Origin: Ignavibacteria bacterium
Lineage (GTDB): Bacteria > Bacteroidota > Ignavibacteria > Kapaibacteriales > Kapaibacteriaceae
DNA length: 64,000 nucleotides
Direction of reading: 5' to 3'
Assembly (NCBI GenBank): GCA_947458785.1
Contig: CANGZU010000001.1
Location: forward strand, 4,269-68,268
Shown here: positions 19,191 through 51,563 of the stretch, one piece after another
Layout: each line of letters opens with the position of its first letter
Position numbering within the stretch: position 1 is the stretch's first letter
Translations under genes and position numbers: made by a program
The notes under the pieces: model-generated
Databases searched by the model: none
Told to the model about the DNA's origin: nothing
What the model saw: only the letters and a program-made list of their open reading frames with translations

Positions 19191-20009
19191 ATGTCAGTTG
19201 TACCCAATACCCGCAAACGCGTAACAACCCGCAGGCTGATTGAAATGAAGTCTGCAGGGAAACCCATCGCATGCCTTACCGCATACGATGCTATCTCGGC
19301 CGCTATCCTTGATGCCTCTGGCGTCGAAGTGCTGCTGGTAGGTGACTCTGTAGGGAACGTGATTCAGGGACACGACACGACTATTCCCGTAACGCTCGAG
19401 CACATGATCTACCACACCCAAGCTGTGGTAAGAGCAGTCAGCCGTGCACTGGTGGTTACTGATATGCCCTTTATGAGTTATCAGGTATCGCCGCAGGAAG
19501 CCTTTCGGAATGCCGGGCGTCTGATGAAGGAAGCTGGCTCCGGGGCGGTCAAGCTCGAGGGTGGCCAGCGGGTCGTGGATTCGGTCAGGCTCATGACGGA
19601 AAACGGAATTCCTGTTATGGGGCACTTGGGGCTTACACCCCAGAGTATTCATCAGTTTGGGTCCTACAAGGAAAGGGGCTCTACCCCGGAAGAAGCAGAG
19701 ATCATGAAGCGTGACGCCCTGGCACTGCAAGAGGCAGGCGCATTTGCGATCGTTCTCGAGAAGATCCCAGCAACTCTGGCAGCGGAGATCACAAGCCTGC
19801 TTTCGATTCCTACAATAGGCATCGGAGCTGGGCCCGCATGTGACGGACAGATCCTTGTCTGGACAGATATGATGGGGATGTCCACGGAATTCAATCCTCG
19901 GTTCGTGCGGCGGTATGCTGATCTGCACACCGTTATGATCGAAGCAGCCTCACAGTACGTTCGCGACGTCAAAGAGCGTTCGTTCCCCTCAGACGAGGAA
20001 AGCTACTGA
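19191..20009 (+). CDS. panB: 3-methyl-2-oxobutanoate hydroxymethyltransferase
   Basis: [13 protein letters not shown]...[10 protein letters not shown]...GHLGLTPQS PanB motifs. Confidence 0.9.
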
Positions 20010-20401
20010 TGCGGAATCTTCTCATCATCGCAACGATCATGTGGGGGCTTGTGCTCGCATCATGCGATGGTTCAATGATTACCGAGCCACAAGATGTTGT
20101 GTTTCCAGACAGCAATGTGAGCTTTCGTGGACAGGTTTTGCCATTTCTGGCCGTTACCTGTGCGGTAAGTGGATGCCACGGAGACATAGGGGCAGCTGCT
20201 GGGATTCGGTTAACTTCGTACTCAACGTTACTTTTCGACAGACCCAACTTGGTTGTACCAGGCAAGCCCGACGAAAGCTTGATCATGCAAGTGCTCGACG
20301 GACGGCTTCTACATCCATGGGGGAACATCCAATCGGTCGTATCCAGCTCGCAGGTTCGTGGCATGGGTACATGGATCATCGAGGGCGCAATCAATAACTA
20401 G
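20009..20401 (+). CDS. small lipoprotein with PSCyt1-like (planctomycete cytochrome c-like) domain, atypical CX4CH
   Basis: lipobox LASC; VLPFLAVTCAVSGCHGD...IRLTSY...VVPGKPDESLIMQVL matches the PSCyt1 pattern, but the Cys are spaced CX4CH. Confidence 0.45.
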   Translation: MRNLLIIATIMWGLVLASCDGSMITEPQDVVFPDSNVSFRGQVLPFLAVTCAVSGCHGDIGAAAGIRLTSYSTLLFDRPNLVVPGKPDESLIMQVLDGRLLHPWGNIQSVVSSSQVRGMGTWIIEGAINN

Positions 20402-20432
20402 GTCACTGAACATTCTTTCGGAGTCAATTTTC

Positions 20433-21452
20433 ATGTCGACACTTCGTTCGCTTCTTATTGCCTTGGCTGGCATCGCGATCATTGCTGGATGTCAACCTAA
20501 GGCCAAACCCGTGCCAATCGAAGGCCTCGAGCTCAAGAAAGATGAGCTCCGCAAATTCGAGATCAAGGTTCCTGCGAACTGGGTTGTCCAGCACCGAAAA
20601 GGCGATATGATCGTGGCCTTTAGCACGAAGGCACATGCTGCGAGATTCACGCAGTTTGGCAAGGGGCGTGGTGGAGCAAAGGTCGAGATTCGCGCCATCG
20701 CTATGGACAGCACCACGAACATTGATTCTCTTGTCAAGCGCTCTAAGCTCGAGTTTGAAGATGGCCTTGACCGTTACCAGAAATCAGTCGCAACGTTAGG
20801 TGGTAAGTCTGGTCAGCGCTTGTTCGTTGATTTCGACCAGGAAGACGGCAAGTTCGTCACTGAATCGTATTTCGCTGAGAACGACTCAGTGGTAACGATG
20901 GTCACATTCGCAGCCTTCGGCAACACATTCGAAGACTATGAAGAAGAGTTCAAAGAGATTTTGGCATCGGTAAAGCTTGCCAAGAAAATGGCTCCACTTC
21001 CGGCTGGTGTTCCGCAGGGGCCGGGAGCACCTGTCCCCCCTAGCGATACTCTTAAGCCACACAGCGGTGGCGACTACGCGATCAGCTATCCAAAGAACTT
21101 CGAAACCAAGAAGGGTTCAGCATCAGCCATAAGCTCAACGATCTTTGTTGGAGCCCGCTTGGACTGTTCAATCCAGGTTGACGTGATCAACGCAAAGGAG
21201 CAAAACAACCTTGACCGAATCGTAGAACAGAACAAGGCGCGCTATCCAGGCGCAACGCAGAGCAATGCAACGCTCGGCGGACAGAAGTCCGTTGTGTTTG
21301 CCTACAATCCAACGGCAACCATTGCAGCGCGCGCATACTTTGCTGTCAAGGGCGATAAGATGTACCGCGTCACTGTCAACTGGAGCAAGGCAGATGAAAA
21401 GGTCTATTTACCGATCTTTGAGAAGTGTGTTCGCTCAATGAAGCTCAACTAA
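20433..21452 (+). CDS. lipoprotein with internally duplicated domain, unknown function
   Basis: lipobox IAGC; two about 150 aa halves with similar pattern; start refined to Met 20433. Confidence 0.4.
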   Translation: MSTLRSLLIALAGIAIIAGCQPKAKPVPIEGLELKKDELRKFEIKVPANWVVQHRKGDMIVAFSTKAHAARFTQFGKGRGGAKVEIRAIAMDSTTNIDSLVKRSKLEFEDGLDRYQKSVATLGGKSGQRLFVDFDQEDGKFVTESYFAENDSVVTMVTFAAFGNTFEDYEEEFKEILASVKLAKKMAPLPAGVPQGPGAPVPPSDTLKPHSGGDYAISYPKNFETKKGSASAISSTIFVGARLDCSIQVDVINAKEQNNLDRIVEQNKARYPGATQSNATLGGQKSVVFAYNPTATIAARAYFAVKGDKMYRVTVNWSKADEKVYLPIFEKCVRSMKLN

Positions 21453-21466
21453 ACGAGACCGTACAG

Positions 21467-22639
21467 ATGAAGGTAGCCGTCATCATCGCCGTCGTATTGT
21501 TCTCCAGTGCGACGGCGTTTTCTATTCCGCAGTTCTCTGCCATTTCCGGAAATCGCTGTATCAACTGTCACGTTGCCCCTTCAGGTGGCGGCGTGCGCAA
21601 CGATCTCGGTTGGTACAGCTGGTATGATGTAGGTCTTGTCCCAAGAACGAATGACCTGTTCAGCTGGTTCTACGACAAGGACTCGTCGAATCAGTTCTTT
21701 AACGGCAAGCTGATTCTTGGCATGGACACTCGCATCCAAAGTACACGGTCCTTCAACAGCGAAGCCTCGGTGCGCAGAACATTTCCAATGCAGACCTCAT
21801 TCTACTCGGCGTACACGCCAATTCCCGAGGTCACCATCGAAGGTTCAGTGAATCTGTCGACGATCGCCCTTGGGTCTGACAATCTTCCCTACCCCGGAAT
21901 GCGTCCGGCAGCAATCTCAGCAATCATTGCACCATCATTCTCTTGGCCATCACTGCGCGTCGGCATGTTCCGTCCGAACATCGGCATGCGATACGACGAC
22001 CACACCATGGCCCCCTACTCCTACACTCTTGCTACGCAGCGCAGGACAGTGATTGCCCCAGACTGGTCCGAGCTTGGTGCCGAGGTATCCTACGAGGGGC
22101 TCAAGTGGCTCTCGCTTCAGGCTGGCGTCTTCAGCAGTGAAGGTCTTTCTCAGGTTCGCATCTCCGATGGAATTGAAACATTTTCAGTTGTCAACGGCAA
22201 CCAGCCAACACTAACAGCTAGAGCAGTGCTCTGGCCGCGTGCATTCAACGACAAGCTGAACATGTGGTTCGGCGGTTCATATCTGCAGAACAACGACTTC
22301 AGCATTACGAGCGCCTTCAGCGGAATTGGACTCAGCGATGAGTTCTCACTCATGCTCGACTACACTCGCATGCATTACGATGATCGCTTTAGCTCTGAGT
22401 CTATGATGGCAGAGTTAATGTATTCGGCATCGACGTGGTTCTTCCCGTATGTTCGGGCAGAGCGTTACTATACGGATCAGTATCGAGCACGTGGCACCTA
22501 CCTGAGTAACTCTGCCACAATCGGAGCTCAGATCTTTTTGATGCCCTATATCGAGCTGCGTCCGGAATACCGCATCTGGGACACGTGGATGACTGGTTAT
22601 ACGTCTCGCTGGAACGTGCAACTGCACTTTTTCTATTGA
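21467..22639 (+). CDS. Cyc2-like fused monoheme cytochrome c-porin (outer membrane)
   Basis: signal peptide, then a single CINCH (CXXCH) about 10 aa into the mature protein, then about 350 aa of alternating amphipathic beta strands ending in aromatic FFY. Confidence 0.5.
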   Translation: MKVAVIIAVVLFSSATAFSIPQFSAISGNRCINCHVAPSGGGVRNDLGWYSWYDVGLVPRTNDLFSWFYDKDSSNQFFNGKLILGMDTRIQSTRSFNSEASVRRTFPMQTSFYSAYTPIPEVTIEGSVNLSTIALGSDNLPYPGMRPAAISAIIAPSFSWPSLRVGMFRPNIGMRYDDHTMAPYSYTLATQRRTVIAPDWSELGAEVSYEGLKWLSLQAGVFSSEGLSQVRISDGIETFSVVNGNQPTLTARAVLWPRAFNDKLNMWFGGSYLQNNDFSITSAFSGIGLSDEFSLMLDYTRMHYDDRFSSESMMAELMYSASTWFFPYVRAERYYTDQYRARGTYLSNSATIGAQIFLMPYIELRPEYRIWDTWMTGYTSRWNVQLHFFY

Positions 22640-22659
22640 TCGCAACAGGAGCCCCGTTC

Positions 22660-22959
22660 ATGAAACAGAACATCCTCATCATCATTGGAGTTGTAGGCAT
22701 CCTTGTAGGGGGCTGGCTCTGGGTTAAGGACGGCATGCATGTGTTCTCCAAGGATCGTGAAGAAGTGGTCCGCGAATTCAAGGACGAACTTTTCGGGACA
22801 ACCCGACGCGAAGTTGAGTACATCCCCGCATTTAAGTTTGGCCTACTTCCAGTCGATGTAACTGTAGCTGATTTCCCACGCTGCTACGCATTCGTAGGCA
22901 GTGTCTCAGTTGCACTCATTGGATTCGGCCTCTGGCGCAAACGCTCCTCTAGCAAGTAG
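22660..22959 (+). CDS. small two-helix membrane protein, unknown function
   Basis: 99 aa with N- and C-terminal hydrophobic helices; directly downstream of the Cyc2-like gene. Confidence 0.35.
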   Translation: MKQNILIIIGVVGILVGGWLWVKDGMHVFSKDREEVVREFKDELFGTTRREVEYIPAFKFGLLPVDVTVADFPRCYAFVGSVSVALIGFGLWRKRSSSK

Positions 22960-22967
22960 CACCTACC

Positions 22968-23060
22968 TCGTCATTCGTCATTGGTAATTCGTCATTCGTC
23001 ATTGGTAATTCGTCATTCGTCATTGGTAATTCGTCATTCGTCATTGGTAATTCGTCATTA
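22968..23060. repeat. perfect 21-bp tandem repeat x4.4 (TCGTCATTCGTCATTGGTAAT)
   Basis: read directly; each unit contains two TCGTCATT octamers; fills the intergenic space immediately 5' of the Rieske gene. Confidence 0.95.
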
Positions 23061-23068
23061 GCACGCCC

Positions 23069-23542
23069 ATGTCTACCTCATCTCGTCGTTCATTCCTGCA
23101 GCAGGCTGCTGCATCTGTTGGACTCGTTCTATCTGCTTCTACAGTGGCAACGCTTGTTGCCGGTTGTGAACAGGACGAAAGTCAGCCAACATCACCAGGC
23201 AAGACATATGATGTAAGTCTTGCAGCGTTTCCAGAGCTCAACACCGTTGGCAGTATCATCCAGACTACCATTGCTGGCGTGAATAACGGGGAGATGGTCT
23301 TCATCTCTCGTATCGATGCGCAGACGTTTGTGGTCTTCAGCACGGTCTGTACGCATTCAGGTTGCGGCGTGGGTCTGCCAATCGATGCTGCAAGCAATTG
23401 CGTTTGTCCGTGCCACAAGGCGGAGTTTGCACGCAGTAATGGTGCCGTACTAAGGCAGCCAACGTCTGGATCAGCTACGGACCTGCCCCGGTTTTCTTCG
23501 ACATACAATGCCTCTTCCAACGTGCTCACGATAACGGTCTAA
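23069..23542 (+). CDS. Tat-exported Rieske [2Fe-2S] protein
   Basis: SRRSFLQQAAA twin-arginine signal; CTHSGC and CPCH Rieske boxes. Confidence 0.8.
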   Translation: MSTSSRRSFLQQAAASVGLVLSASTVATLVAGCEQDESQPTSPGKTYDVSLAAFPELNTVGSIIQTTIAGVNNGEMVFISRIDAQTFVVFSTVCTHSGCGVGLPIDAASNCVCPCHKAEFARSNGAVLRQPTSGSATDLPRFSSTYNASSNVLTITV

Positions 23543-25453: not shown

Positions 25454-26707
25454 ATGAACATCCTGCTTGGAATAACCGGAAGCGTTTCGGCCTACAAAAC
25501 GCCATGGCTTGTGCGAGATCTGCGCAAGGCCGGCCACGACGTGCGCGTGGTGATGACTCCATCTGCCCGCCAGTTCGTAGCGCCACTGGCCCTGGAGGCG
25601 GTATCACTGCATTCGGTGATCATCGACCCCTACGATCCAGCAATTCAGCAAGGGGGCTCATGGCACGTGCATCTTGCTCAGTGGGCCGATTTGATCTTGA
25701 TCGCCCCTTGCTCAGCAACGACGTTGGCACGCCTTGCCACAGGGTTATGCGACACAGCTCTCATGACTGTTGTCTGCTCACGGACAGCCGACACTGAGCT
25801 GATCGTGTTCCCGGCCATGGACACCGACATGTGGCTGCAACCATCGACCAAGCGCAATGTTGAACAACTGCGCGCTGACGGCATCACCGTTGTAGATCCA
25901 GACTCAGGCGAGCTTGCTTCCGGACTGATAGGTCAAGGCAGACTGCCAGAGATTGGGAAGATCGTTGGGATAGTAGCGAGTGCCGAGTACCGAGTGCCGA
26001 GCAGCGAAGTTGGTCGTCCTCGCGAAAGCGGGGACCCAGCACTCGGAACACGGCACTCGGCACTCGGCACTCGGAACTCGCTGCTTATAACCGCTGGTCC
26101 CACCCATGAACGCATTGATGCCGTACGCTCGATCGTAAATCATGCCACGGGTACAATGGGATTTGCACTTGCAGAAGCTGCACAGAAGCGTGGGTACCTG
26201 GTGACGCTTGTGACGGGTCCAACAAATCTTCCAGCACCATTTGGCGTGGAACGCATAGATGTTGTGAGCGCACAAGAGATGTACGAAGCAGTGATGAAGC
26301 ACAGAGATGTGGACGCATTCATCATGGCGGCAGCAGTGGCTGACTTTACCCCATTGAAGCCGTCACAGCAGAAGATCAAGAAGGAACAACTCGGCGATAC
26401 TCTTTCGATAGAGCTTACCCGCACCCACGACATTCTCGCAGAGATCGGCAAGGGTAAGACAGAACGTCAACGCGTTGTCGGGTTTGCTCTCGAATCCGAC
26501 GACGTCGTCGAGAACGCGAAGCGAAAGCTCGCAACGAAGAGTGCAGACATGATTATTGCCAATCAGGCAGGCGTGCCGAACAGCGGGTTTGGCGGCGGAC
26601 AGAATACCATAACGATCGTTACGAATGGTTCGGATCCAAAGACCTATCCGGCGATGTCGAAACGCGCATGTGCCGAGGTGATCCTCGATGCATTGGAGAA
26701 CCTGTGA
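25454..26707 (+). CDS. coaBC: bifunctional phosphopantothenoylcysteine decarboxylase / phosphopantothenate-cysteine ligase
   Basis: N-terminal flavoprotein domain; LLITAGPTHERIDAVRSIVNHATGTMGFALAEAA CoaB signature; linker lengthened by a repeat element. Confidence 0.9.
   Translation: MNILLGITGSVSAYKTPWLVRDLRKAGHDVRVVMTPSARQFVAPLALEAVSLHSVIIDPYDPAIQQGGSWHVHLAQWADLILIAPCSATTLARLATGLCDTALMTVVCSRTADTELIVFPAMDTDMWLQPSTKRNVEQLRADGITVVDPDSGELASGLIGQGRLPEIGKIVGIVASAEYRVPSSEVGRPRESGDPALGTRHSALGTRNSLLITAGPTHERIDAVRSIVNHATGTMGFALAEAAQKRGYLVTLVTGPTNLPAPFGVERIDVVSAQEMYEAVMKHRDVDAFIMAAAVADFTPLKPSQQKIKKEQLGDTLSIELTRTHDILAEIGKGKTERQRVVGFALESDDVVENAKRKLATKSADMIIANQAGVPNSGFGGGQNTITIVTNGSDPKTYPAMSKRACAEVILDALENL
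25975..26085. repeat. imperfect palindromic element: arms of GCCGAGT/ACTCGGC heptamer repeats around a CGCGAAAGCG tetraloop core
   Basis: read directly; in-frame within the coaBC interdomain linker (encodes ...AEYRVPSSEVGRPRESGDPALGTRHSALGTRNS...). Confidence 0.85.
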
Positions 26708-36265: not shown

Positions 36266-36552
36266 AGATAGTCGCGTGATATATTTGCACGCCGATGTAG
36301 TTGCTGTCGCTAATCACGGCAGCACATTGAGGGAAGCACGCGAGAATCGTGCACGGTTGCGCCGCCGTAACGGCAGACGATCCTACCTAGTCCTGAGAGG
36401 ACAGTCACTGCGTGTGTGTTGATGACACAATGCGGGAAGACGGTTGGAGAGGATGAAGCCGAAGTCGGAATACCTGCTACATCGATTTCTACAACTGGAG
36501 ACGCTGTCTCCTCTGTCGCGCATCACGACAGACAATACTCAAGGGGCTTGCC

Positions 36553-50834: not shown

Positions 50835-51563
50835 TTACTCCGCAGAGCTACCGTCGGCTGCTGGAGCGTCGGCTGCTGGAGCGTCGGCTGCTGGAGCGTC
50901 GGCTGCTGGAGCGTCGGCTGCTGGAGCGTCGGCTGCTGGAGCGTCGGCTGTATCAGCAGGTGCTTCTGCTGCAGGAGCTTCTGCTGCAGGTGCTTCGACC
51001 ACTGGCGTCTCTTCTACAATGGCCTCCTCAACGACCGGGTCTTCTACAACGACCGGTGCAGGAGCTACTGCCACTGGAGCTGGCTTTGGCTTGGCTGCTG
51101 GCTTCGGCTTGGCTGGTGTCTTCGCTGCGGCACGGCGCTTCGTAGAAGATGATCGGCCATCAACCGGATTTGACCAGTCGACAAGCTCAATCATCGCCGT
51201 CGCTGCGGCATCACCACGACGAAGCCCAAGCTTCGTAATGCGTGTATAGCCACCATCGCGCTCTGCCACAAGTGGAGCGATCGTATCGAACAGCTCCTGC
51301 AGCACACCCTTGTTCTTGATGAAGCGTCCTACCATACGGCGGTTGTGAACGTCAACGCCGGTGATGGCGCCTGACTTCTCCGACCGATGCGCATTGCGTG
51401 CACGTGTGATAAGCTGTTCAGCAAATGGACGGAGTTCCTTGGCCTTCGCAACTGTTGTTACCAGACGCTTGTGCTCGAACAACGATGTTGCCAAGTTCGC
51501 AAGCAACGCGCGCTTGTGGCTCGCTGTGCGCTTGAGTTTCCGACCTGCATACCCATGTCGCAT
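50835..51563 (-). CDS. rplQ: 50S ribosomal protein L17 with long Ala/Pro/Lys-rich C-terminal extension
   Basis: N-terminal about 120 aa canonical L17 (MRHGYAGRKLKRTASHKRALL...); C-terminal about 120 aa low-complexity tail ending in 6x APAAD. Confidence 0.9.
   Translation of the reverse strand: MRHGYAGRKLKRTASHKRALLANLATSLFEHKRLVTTVAKAKELRPFAEQLITRARNAHRSEKSGAITGVDVHNRRMVGRFIKNKGVLQELFDTIAPLVAERDGGYTRITKLGLRRGDAAATAMIELVDWSNPVDGRSSSTKRRAAAKTPAKPKPAAKPKPAPVAVAPAPVVVEDPVVEEAIVEETPVVEAPAAEAPAAEAPADTADAPAADAPAADAPAADAPAADAPAADAPAADGSSAE
50854..50950. repeat. six perfect 15-bp tandem repeats (TCGGCTGCTGGAGCG) inside the rplQ 3' end
   Basis: read directly; encodes (APAAD)6 on the minus strand; a second degenerate 15-bp repeat family follows (GCAGGTGCTTCTGCT). 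Confidence 0.95.

Follow-up and report, generated by a model that had tools for sequence, protein, structure and literature searches.

The gene cluster

The window, that is, the whole 64-kb stretch of DNA analysed here, carries on its forward strand a cluster of five genes which is syntenic in all relatives, down to a Rieske protein identity of 49%. The first gene (20009..20401), also syntenic in relatives, encodes a 130-aa predicted lipoprotein (LASC) with a CxxCH motif and a PSCyt1-type cytochrome c domain (Pfam PF07635, E = 3.5e-5). A second predicted lipoprotein of 339 aa with an IAGC lipobox follows (20433..21452); the window protein has no Pfam match, and its L042 homologue shows a faint match to PsbP_2. 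The third gene (21467..22639) encodes a 390-aa protein with a signal peptide, as judged by eye, the sequence CINCH (CxxCH) near its N-terminus and a predicted 16-strand beta-barrel. Its AF2 model has a mean pLDDT of 79.7, and the top Foldseek matches of the model are porins, including OprP (2o4v) and OprO (4rjw). All 31 homologues share residues C31, C34 and H35, and the family consensus is AIPQFSxLTGNRCxNCHVxPxGGG. From the model, the protein is predicted to be a haem-c porin with the fused cytochrome-porin architecture of Cyc2. The fourth gene (22660..22959), preceded by AGGAG and again syntenic in all relatives, encodes a small membrane protein of 99 aa with no family match in Pfam or NCBIfam.

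The likeness to Cyc2, a fused cytochrome-porin iron oxidase, extends to the signal peptide and single N-terminal CxxCH, to a porin of approximately 16 strands with OprO and OprP as structural matches, and to a size of 365 aa or more (PMC8406198). The Cyc2 signature, however, places PXFAR[Q/K][T/Y] ahead of the CxxCH and PXL after it (Keffer 2021, PMC8406198); set against this published description, the 390-aa protein has IPQFSAIS at a different distance from the CxxCH, and PXL is missing. The genes for the Rieske protein and for a Cyc2-like haem-porin departing from the signature sit in one conserved cluster, a candidate new outer-membrane redox module.

The last gene (23069..23542, forward strand) encodes a Rieske [2Fe-2S] protein of 157 aa (Pfam PF00355) with an SRRSFLQ twin-arginine signal and a VAGC lipobox. 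Across 10 homologues the residues R6 R7 x F9 L10, the lipobox Cys33 and the ligands C94, H96, C113 and H116 are invariant, while the disulfide pair C99/C115 is nearly so. The protein is thus predicted from its sequence to be a Tat-exported lipoprotein, and the invariant twin-arginine motif upholds the Tat export proposed in the first-pass annotation. The same annotation saw no cytochrome b partner nearby, and none of the genes called over ±10 kb has a cytochrome b domain. With no such neighbour, and with NCBIfam scores of 24–33 bits that lie far under the family cut-offs of 97–275, assignment as the Rieske subunit of a cytochrome bc1 or b6f complex is rejected. The suggestion that the protein belongs instead with the upstream redox module gains weight from the five-gene synteny and from the haem-c porin model of the 390-aa member.

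The heptad array and its spacer

The 99-aa gene (ORF 22660..22959) ends with a TAG at 22957–22959 and the Rieske ATG lies at 23069, leaving an intercistronic spacer of 109 bp (22960..23068, forward strand) which is composed of CACCTACC (8 bp), a tandem array of heptads (22968..23059, forward strand) and AGCACGCCC (9 bp). Tandem Repeats Finder describes the array with a period of 21, 4.4 copies, 100% matches and the consensus TCGTCATTCGTCATTGGTAAT, or with a period of 7, 13.1 copies and 81% matches. Each 21-bp unit is built of three heptads, TCGTCAT TCGTCAT TGGTAAT, in an A-A-B pattern, so that the basic period is 7 bp and 13.1 heptads make up the 4.4 perfect units. The perfect 21-bp array reported in the first pass is therefore real, though 21 bp is not its basic period as had been assumed. 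The spacer size was likewise correct, but the array does not fill the entire spacer, as it occupies 92 of the 109 bp with CACCTACC ahead of it, and its distance from the ATG, given as 8 bp, is nine.

At up to 3 mismatches, the 21-mer occurs in the window only at the four positions of the array, and in 0 of 100 shuffles. The octamer TCGTCATT is found nine times in the array and three times elsewhere, where approximately 3.1 are expected for the entire window. Neither further TCGTCATT direct repeats nor a second TCGTCAT array were found in the 64 kb, and no reverse-complement heptad was found near the array. The array contains 4 G per 21 nt, with no G-runs, and is noncoding, each unit carrying a TAA in the Rieske reading frame, which rules out an N-terminal extension of the Rieske ORF across it. 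When short-period arrays with periods of 4 to 12 are counted across the window, there are two at period 7 and none at each other period, giving two heptad-array loci in 64 kb of the source genome. The second is the coaBC linker pair (25968–26085), which is also strain-variable. A split coaBC in L039 was considered as a demonstrated frameshift and rejected, the sequence being discontinuous at the repeat, which indicates a mis-join or rearrangement.

No 4-mer of the Shine-Dalgarno sequence AGGAGGT was found 4–13 nt upstream of the Rieske ATG; such motifs are present at 9 of the 19 neighbouring genes, three of them in the cluster. A promoter scan detected no promoter-like site in 22640–23069, regional counts being equal to the shuffle expectation, and we know of no promoter consensus defined for this phylum, so the scan may not apply. 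Terminator-like sites were also absent from the spacer by scan, again with counts equal to shuffle expectation. A search of the entire window against Rfam at the gathering threshold returned only a distant cobalamin riboswitch and nothing at the array. The spacer RNA is less structured than its shuffles (MFE of -10 vs -13.2 kcal/mol, z = +1.24), with a centroid that is essentially unpaired. In in-silico folding of 0–8 units, nucleotides around the AUG stay unpaired with a mean probability of 0.60–0.62, and RNA structure was accordingly rejected as the basis of a rheostat. Readings of the unit as a Fur box, a Pho box or a sigma-70 promoter proved poor matches by eye, and the spacing is wrong too, with contiguous 7-bp repeats in place of 11-bp or 6-bp periodicity. 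No regulator or transcription-factor domain was found among the genes within ±10 kb.

Variation among relatives

Contigs that share the same Rieske protein and have 4-kb flanks 99.8–100% identical carry 1, 2, 3 or 4 units, all alleles being taken from short-read metagenome assemblies in which assembler collapse may account for some of the copy numbers. L004 has two units and L003 three. Between L001 and the window there is 1 substitution in 4,000 bp but a 63-bp difference in the array. Comparison of copy number across strains, proposed as a check in the first pass, reveals variation, and the recent expansion and contraction deduced there from the perfection of the array is supported. In total, at least nine alleles of 46–154 bp exist among contigs with flanks 98.6–100% identical.

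Strains that are ~99% identical, referred to as B-type, have spacers of 63, 98, 133 and 154 bp, which differ by multiples of 7 bp in steps of 35 and 21 bp. Their heptads GTACCCT, GTACCTC and GTACCTT (GTACCYY) grade into GTAATTG GTCATTC GTCATTC, with a higher order that is 14-bp or irregular and with two or three copies of TCGTCATT retained. Spacers of 133 bp occur with two different internal heptad orders. Alleles match across independent ENA and JGI assemblies (L030 = L031, L034 = L035, L036 = L037), and 3 Logan contigs terminate within the array.

In a sister species (76% identity) the spacer holds three heptads that are unchanged in five contigs, with no TCGTCAT and no TCGTCATT; short arrays look stable. 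Relatives at 58–60% protein identity have spacers of 4 nt and 13 nt with no array, the 60% relative displaying GGAG 9 nt upstream of the start, and the relative at 49% has a repeat-free spacer of 94 nt. The closest named relatives are listed as 'Ignavibacteria bacterium' and 'Candidatus Kapabacteria bacterium', with no cyanobacterium among them. Plain 7-bp and 14-bp orders are both seen among relatives. The array is a lineage-specific and presumably slippage-prone heptameric repeat.

The same heptads in other phyla

Heptad arrays containing the exact 21-mer are present in 17 genomes from approximately 10 phyla and in 19 metagenome contigs, against ~0.3 occurrences expected, in scans of genome and metagenome collections whose matches do not include the source locus itself. 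Nostoc, Aulosira, Microcoleus and Leptolyngbyaceae carry the 21-mer in their STRR arrays, and arrays of the heptad T[C/G/T]GT[C/A]AT are distributed across Cyanobacteria, Bacteroidota, Ignavibacteriota, Verrucomicrobiota, Planctomycetota and Nitrospirota. Identical arrays scattered over unrelated loci had been named in the first-pass annotation as the mark of a generic dispersed repeat, and across genomes this is the pattern observed. By crude ORF calling, a forward ORF begins no further than 60 nt away at 18 of the 34 distinct loci that carry the 21-mer, and the orientation count of 18 forward against 13 reverse is a weak bias, so that a preferred orientation towards downstream starts was not accepted. 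Fourteen of the 34 are inverted pairs, and pairs of the form (AATGACGA)n...(TCGTCATT)n are a frequent form in which the heptads recur across phyla. Viral contigs searched with the window unit and with a B-type 21-mer gave 0 matches, and thus no evidence of phage-borne spread.

Origin and possible roles of the array

The array is probably an STRR-like heptanucleotide SSR that arose in the spacer of a conserved operon, has no dedicated regulator and exerts at most a modest effect on output. It would have arisen and expanded in one Ignavibacteria/Kapabacteria lineage, within a five-gene operon whose putative products are a cytochrome c lipoprotein, the 339-aa lipoprotein, a Cyc2-like cytochrome-porin, the 99-aa membrane protein and the Rieske lipoprotein. 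Changes in length may proceed by slipped-strand mispairing or by unequal recombination. With an A-A-B pattern of heptads, perfect re-pairing is achieved only when the register shifts by 21 bp, which yields steps of 21 bp and is a better explanation of them than helical phasing. Transcription of the array within the polycistronic mRNA is probable, and there it would form an unstructured, U-rich spacer. The array-bearing clade has a long leader without a Shine-Dalgarno sequence where a tight junction of 4–13 nt, in one case with GGAG, is found in two of the three distant lineages. Any effect on Rieske output would be length-dependent and modest at most. Against this account, recurrence of the heptads in unrelated phyla, together with persistence of some array at this site across the clade, could reflect selection and not mutational bias alone.

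An alternative considers the array a translational cis-element or rheostat, in which forward heptads replace the Shine-Dalgarno sequence and copy number tunes the Rieske protein against its operon partners in the manner of a contingency locus, either by recruiting ribosomes or an S1-, Csp- or CsrA-like RNA-binding protein, or by fixing the spacing for re-initiation downstream of the preceding cistron. Consistent with this, 9 nt separate the array from an ATG lacking the motif seen at nearly half of the neighbouring genes, the array-free 60% relative has its GGAG at the same distance, natural populations are polymorphic in copy number, and forward starts lie close to 18 of the 34 loci with the 21-mer. 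Precedents are found in the geometry of the TAACTGA repeats (PMC4679880) and in the (ATCTTTC)n heptamer rheostat of hmw1A (PMC12721329). The heptads themselves, however, are not conserved, given that strains at 99% identity mostly use GTACCYY and the sister species has no TCGTCAT, and a sequence-specific reader is therefore unlikely. The orientation bias is slight (18 forward vs 13 reverse, with inverted pairs at 14 of 34), predicted accessibility of the start is flat over 0 to 8 units and no hairpin partner of the hmw1A kind is present. Altogether, a rheostat appears unlikely at this locus.

This proposal can be widened, such that T[C/G/T]GT[C/A]AT arrays in general would be transcribed cis-elements shared across phyla, serving as Shine-Dalgarno substitutes and slippage-driven rheostats and here setting Rieske stoichiometry; they would be recognised by a conserved single-strand nucleic-acid-binding protein or by the ribosome itself. 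The wider proposal is improbable. If it is true, the stoichiometry of a periplasmic Rieske lipoprotein within a hitherto undescribed Cyc2-like outer-membrane electron-transfer module would be governed by array copy number.

The first-pass annotation regarded the array as iterated TCGTCATT sites spaced by two helical turns and bound by a direct-repeat-binding transcription factor, which would control the Rieske gene. The perfect 21-bp period of the window allele and its nine TCGTCATT octamers agree with such an operator, but the repeating unit is 7 bp and the 21-bp order is specific to one haplotype: the ~99% identical B-type strains have different heptads in 14-bp or irregular order with two or three octamers, and the sister species has none. 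Relatives at 49–60% identity have no array, the motif is unconserved at orthologous loci, and otherwise identical strains carry one-unit alleles. In addition, the spacer offers no promoter-like site to regulate, no transcription-factor gene lies within ±10 kb, and arrays of the same motif occur at unrelated loci in many phyla. An operator is thus very unlikely.

Equally hard to credit is an internal promoter assembled from adjacent units, with TTGGTA as a -35-like and GGTAAT as a -10-like element, by which alleles of at least two units would transcribe the Rieske gene independently. By eye, TTGGTA-N17-GGTAAT occurs once per pair of adjacent units, and would be missing from one-unit alleles. 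Of 12 positions, however, just 8 match, the -10 element is without the key A at its position 2, the promoter scan is silent and the motif pair is missing from B-type arrays. Finally, de Bruijn graph assemblers are known to collapse tandem repeats and three Logan contigs stop inside the array, but it is extremely improbable that the perfect array or the copy-number differences are short-read assembly artefacts, as typical reads, and also the k=141 that the k141_ contig names imply, exceed the 92 bp of the array, independent projects and assemblers return identical alleles (the three pairs above), and alleles differ in internal heptad order and not in length alone.

Taken alone, then, the array represents an ordinary hypermutable repeat. 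The locus offers a VNTR marker for strain typing of an uncultured Ignavibacteria/Kapabacteria population, and it warns of contig breakage or collapse at the array. An influence of pre-start heptamer repeats on translation is a long-standing idea, for which the series of 1, 2, 3 and 4 units with identical flanks provides a natural test set, directed at whether heptamers before starts without a Shine-Dalgarno sequence affect translation. Furthermore, with the heptads recurring in some 10 phyla, the STRR phenomenon reaches well beyond cyanobacteria.

Comparison with known heptameric repeats

Heptameric intergenic repeats have been known since 1990, when Mazel et al. reportedly described the STRR heptamers CCCCAGT, TTGGTCA and CAACAGT of Calothrix and Nostoc, which are said to belong to cyanobacterial genomes, chiefly those of heterocystous species. 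STRR heptads are found between co-transcribed genes, for example hupS-hupL (PMC2670836), and heptameric SSRs generally are over-represented in bacteria, are ascribed to polymerase slippage and vary strongly among close relatives (PMC4692102). The present array shares with STRRs its tandem 7-bp units, its location in an intergenic or intercistronic operon spacer and its variability between close relatives (PMC2670836, PMC4692102). It also draws on the same heptad family, with TTGGTCA in B-type alleles and CCCCAGT in L010 and L011. Unlike STRRs, it resides in an Ignavibacteria/Kapabacteria-like host, which places it outside the strict sense of the term, reserved for cyanobacterial genomes, and the window allele has a perfect higher-order unit of three heptads.

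The TAACTGA intergenic direct repeats of marine Beggiatoaceae, Cyanobacteria and five Bacteroidetes (MacGregor 2015, PMC4679880) are similar in that forward heptamers end shortly ahead of start codons that have no Shine-Dalgarno sequence, from a few to about 40 nt away in the published cases and 9 nt here, that close relatives have shorter, repeat-free spacers between the same gene neighbours, and that contigs break inside the repeats. For these repeats, an RNA-binding protein acting on polycistronic mRNA is a published hypothesis (PMC4679880), with which the corresponding suggestion of the first-pass annotation for the present array agrees. The differences are that the units here are TCGTCAT and TGGTAAT, with heptad sequence turning over between strains, and that the genome fragment examined holds one such pre-start locus.

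The phase-variable (ATCTTTC)n tracts in the 5'-UTR of Haemophilus influenzae hmw1A/hmw2A are also heptameric SSRs of naturally polymorphic copy number that precede the coding region of an exported protein (PMC12721329). There, 10 repeats and a G-rich arm form a long hairpin that is cleaved by RNase III, and expression drops as the repeat lengthens (PMC12721329), whereas the RNA of the present array is predicted to be unstructured and has no partner arm. The GGGAATC and GGGGA(T/C)T repeats of Xanthomonas and Nostoc (Rehm 2015, PMC4692102) resemble it as intergenic, sometimes intra-operon, heptameric SSRs, in some cases inside an operon as in pecE-pecF and sometimes in inverted pairs, and likewise at a single intergenic site they are very variable in length and sequence among close relatives (PMC4692102). 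They are, however, G-rich and quadruplex-forming, in contrast to the G-poor composition described above. The array is a hypervariable heptameric SSR of a kind known from cyanobacteria and some other bacteria, and shows no sign of being a dedicated regulator-binding site.

Structure and variation of the repeat array

The spacer between the 99-aa membrane-protein gene (22660-22959, stop codon TAG at 22957-22959) and the Rieske gene (start ATG at 23069) comprises 109 bases, 92 of which are occupied by a tandem array, with 8 bp on its 5' side and 9 bp (AGCACGCCC) on its 3' side. The array noted by the first-pass annotation was confirmed with Tandem Repeats Finder at 22968-23059 (period 21, 4.4 copies of TCGTCATTCGTCATTGGTAAT, 100% matches), and the same stretch is also called at period 7 (13.1 copies, 81% matches). 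The 21-mer is composed of TCGTCAT-TCGTCAT-TGGTAAT, and the true repeating unit is the heptad. With up to 3 mismatches allowed, no further site for the unit was found in the 64-kb window (0 of 100 shuffles), while the octamer TCGTCATT occurs nine times in the array and three times elsewhere in the window, a chance level. The Rieske start lacks a Shine-Dalgarno motif, which is present at 9 of 19 neighbouring genes, three of them in the same cluster.

Spacers read from fetched contigs with an identical or near-identical Rieske protein fall into two haplotype groups. Window-type spacers, flanked by CACCTACC and AGCACGCCC, measure 46, 67, 88 and 109 bp, corresponding to 1, 2, 3 and 4 units, in contigs 99.8-100% identical to the window across a 4 kb flank. 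The recent expansion and contraction proposed in the first-pass annotation is thereby borne out. One such contig, L001, has a single substitution in the 4 kb flank but differs by 63 bp in the array; in three more, the array is interrupted by the contig end. B-type contigs, with flanks ~99% identical, have spacers of 63, 98, 133 and 154 bp (length steps of 35 and 21 bp), built of GTACCCT, GTACCTC and GTACCTT heptads that merge 3' into GTAATTG-GTCATTC-GTCATTC. Their 133-bp alleles show two distinct internal orders, and some 63-bp alleles are separated by point changes.

Further away, a sister species (76% protein identity) has a 42-bp spacer with only three heptads (CTTGTAC CTTGTAC CTCGTAA), the same in five contigs. 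In a second 76% relative, CCAGTAA-type heptads extend across the small gene's stop codon: CCAGTAA CCAGTAA TCAGTAA TCAGTA covers its last codons and stop (contigs L010, 5959-5985, and L011, 4-30). The small membrane protein has 103 aa there versus 99, and slippage at these heptads would alter its C-terminus. Relatives at 58-60% identity have spacers of 4 and 13 nt, the latter with GGAG, and a 49% relative has a repeat-free spacer of 94 nt. The tight junctions, seen in two of three distant lineages, are probably translationally coupled and suggest that a tight junction is the ancestral state. The heptad array is an expansion specific to one clade, and its rate of change exceeds that of point substitution by orders of magnitude.

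Recurrence across phyla

The repeat is generic and not tied to this locus. Arrays at unrelated loci, which by the first-pass annotation would count against its reading, do occur across genomes, with the source genome covered over 64 kb. When one genome for each species (596 Gb, ~0.3 chance matches expected) was scanned for exact matches, the window's 21-mer was located in 17 genomes, which carry cyanobacterial names (Nostoc, Aulosira, Microcoleus, Leptolyngbyaceae) or belong to Chitinophaga (two), Bacteroidales (two), one other Bacteroidota, Ignavibacteria, Chthoniobacterales (two), one other Verrucomicrobiota, Planctomycetaceae, Bythopirellula, Nitrospirota and Saccharibacteria; scanning metagenomes added 19 contigs. 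In every case the 21-mer is embedded in a T[C/G/T]GT[C/A]AT heptad array. An inverted partner array forming a long hairpin accompanies 14 of 34 distinct loci, and in 13 of these 14, from many phyla, the order is (AATGACGA)n-centre-(TCGTCATT)n with a GC-rich centre (inverted-pair loci: L012, L019, L025-L028, L047, L051, L054, L058-L060, L064). The two Chitinophaga varians copies (L019 and L026) surround the same conserved hairpin core, resembling a dispersed palindromic element. Within 60 nt, about half of the 34 loci show a plausible start codon in forward orientation and nearly as many show one in reverse, so orientation bias is weak.

Other repeats in the window

A lag-identity scan detected two short-period arrays of period 7 in the window and none of any other period from 4 to 12. 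The second, ~3 kb from the Rieske array, is a strain-variable inverted pair, (GAGTGCC/GAGTACC)n ... (GGCACTC)n, at 25968-26085, in the CoaC-CoaB linker of coaBC (25454..26707, +), where the reading frame runs straight through the arrays. At this second hypervariable heptad site, which was also located in contigs L007 (8903-9001) and L009 (8900-9082), relatives carry other heptads, (AGCGARC)n ... (TCGCTGC)4, which encode 7-aa SSEQRAP repeats. The protein has 417, 427, 454 or 461 aa, and one allele pair differs in length by exactly 21 bp. L010 has a palindrome, GGGGCGAGCC...GGCTCGCCCC, in place of the heptad pair. In the sister-species contig L039, sequence diverges completely midway in the coaBC array, from ~5840 onward, and two ORFs (209 and 283 aa) are called; either the contig was mis-joined at the repeat, or a genuine rearrangement or insertion has taken place there.

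Elsewhere, an ORF at 50835..51563 (-), which by eye we take to be ribosomal protein L17, contains a perfect 15-bp x 6.6 array (50852-50950), in-frame as (PAADA)n in the C-terminal tail, followed by a second, imperfect 15-bp array (50956-50996). A full-length cobalamin riboswitch (RF00174, 72.3 bits) lies at 36281-36495 (+).

The Rieske protein and its gene cluster

The gene 3' of the array encodes a Rieske [2Fe-2S] protein (PF00355). An alignment of 10 homologues of 46-100% identity shows no variation in the twin-arginine residues (R6 R7 x F9 L10), in C33 of the VAGC lipobox or in the cluster ligands C94, H96, C113 and H116. The protein is therefore predicted to be a lipoprotein exported by the Tat pathway, the Tat export agreeing with the first-pass annotation. 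It scores far under the cut-offs of bc1, b6f and arsenite-oxidase Rieske subunits, and, as had also been noted, a cytochrome b gene is absent from the surrounding +/-10 kb. The cluster (20009-23542, +) encodes a PSCyt1-like cytochrome c lipoprotein (130 aa), a second lipoprotein of 339 aa, a protein of 390 aa, the 99-aa membrane protein and the Rieske protein, always flanked by panB on one side and an rsmB-like gene on the other. Relatives with as little as 49% Rieske identity share this gene order, which supports the suggested membership of the Rieske protein in the upstream redox module. The five genes are a candidate outer-membrane-to-periplasm electron-transfer module that lacks cytochrome b. 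Source names on the homologues place the organism among Ignavibacteria/Kapabacteria.

The 390-aa protein (21467-22639, +) combines a signal peptide with an N-terminal CxxCH that is invariant among homologues. Its predicted structure is a barrel of ~16 strands (mean pLDDT 79.7), for which the best PDB matches in Foldseek are porins, including OprP and OprO. As modelled, these features are those of the fused cytochrome-porin architecture published for the iron oxidase Cyc2 (PMC8406198), although the Cyc2 signature PXFAR[Q/K][T/Y] is absent. All 222 homologues found, with names from Ignavibacteria, Kapabacteria and Bacteroidetes, are 'hypothetical', and the protein may represent an undescribed haem-porin family.

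Role of the array

Neither a promoter-like or terminator-like site nor an Rfam match was found in the spacer, from which the simplest inference is co-transcription with the upstream genes. We consider the array likely to be a passive spacer, U-rich, unstructured and prone to slippage, that the operon tolerates. It would convert the junction, tight in two of the three distant lineages, to a leader without a Shine-Dalgarno motif, and its length may modestly modulate Rieske translation. The main rival reading, a genuine translational cis-element or rheostat, is rather unlikely, the heptad sequence not being conserved between strains 99% identical. To our knowledge, (ATCTTTC)n of H. influenzae hmw1A is the sole heptamer repeat with a demonstrated mechanism. 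There, a 5'-UTR hairpin is cleaved by RNase III and longer repeats lower expression (PMC12721329). Unlike hmw1A, the Rieske spacer RNA is predicted to be less structured than shuffles (MFE -10 vs -13.2 kcal/mol, z = +1.24), and modelled alleles with 0-8 units keep a steady mean unpaired probability of 0.60-0.62 between positions -20 and +12 relative to the AUG, so an hmw-like structural rheostat is unsupported.

An operator with regulator sites phased at two helical turns, the model of the first-pass annotation, is highly improbable: the unit is a heptad and B-type arrays have no 21-bp phasing. The A-A-B heptad pattern of the window haplotype would allow perfect re-pairing in slippage only at a 21-bp register shift, accounting for the 21-bp step and making helical phasing unnecessary. 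An internal promoter is given just as little credence. Least probable is an assembly artefact, against which identical alleles from independent assemblies argue (L030=L031, L034=L035, L036=L037). The value of the locus rests mainly on its clean natural allelic series, on the reappearance of these heptads in other phyla and on the neighbouring Cyc2-like module.

Comparison with known heptamer repeats

Many bacteria have an excess of heptameric SSRs, which is put down to polymerase slippage; these repeats vary strongly in length and sequence among close relatives at one intergenic site (PMC4692102). MacGregor reported TAACTGA repeats from Beggiatoaceae, Cyanobacteria and five Bacteroidetes, mostly forward and a few nt 5' of start codons that lack a Shine-Dalgarno motif, where the spacers of relatives are shorter and repeat-free, and put forward S1-, Csp- or CsrA-type readers (PMC4679880). 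The window array is of the same sort as the cyanobacterial STRRs, which are likewise heptamer arrays. The original STRR heptads of Mazel et al. in 1990 were reportedly CCCCAGT, TTGGTCA and CAACAGT. Two of these are found literally here, CCCCAGT in L010/L011 and TTGGTCA in B-type alleles. The array belongs with the STRR-like heptameric SSRs, a known kind of repeat, and its host genome is Ignavibacteria/Kapabacteria-like.
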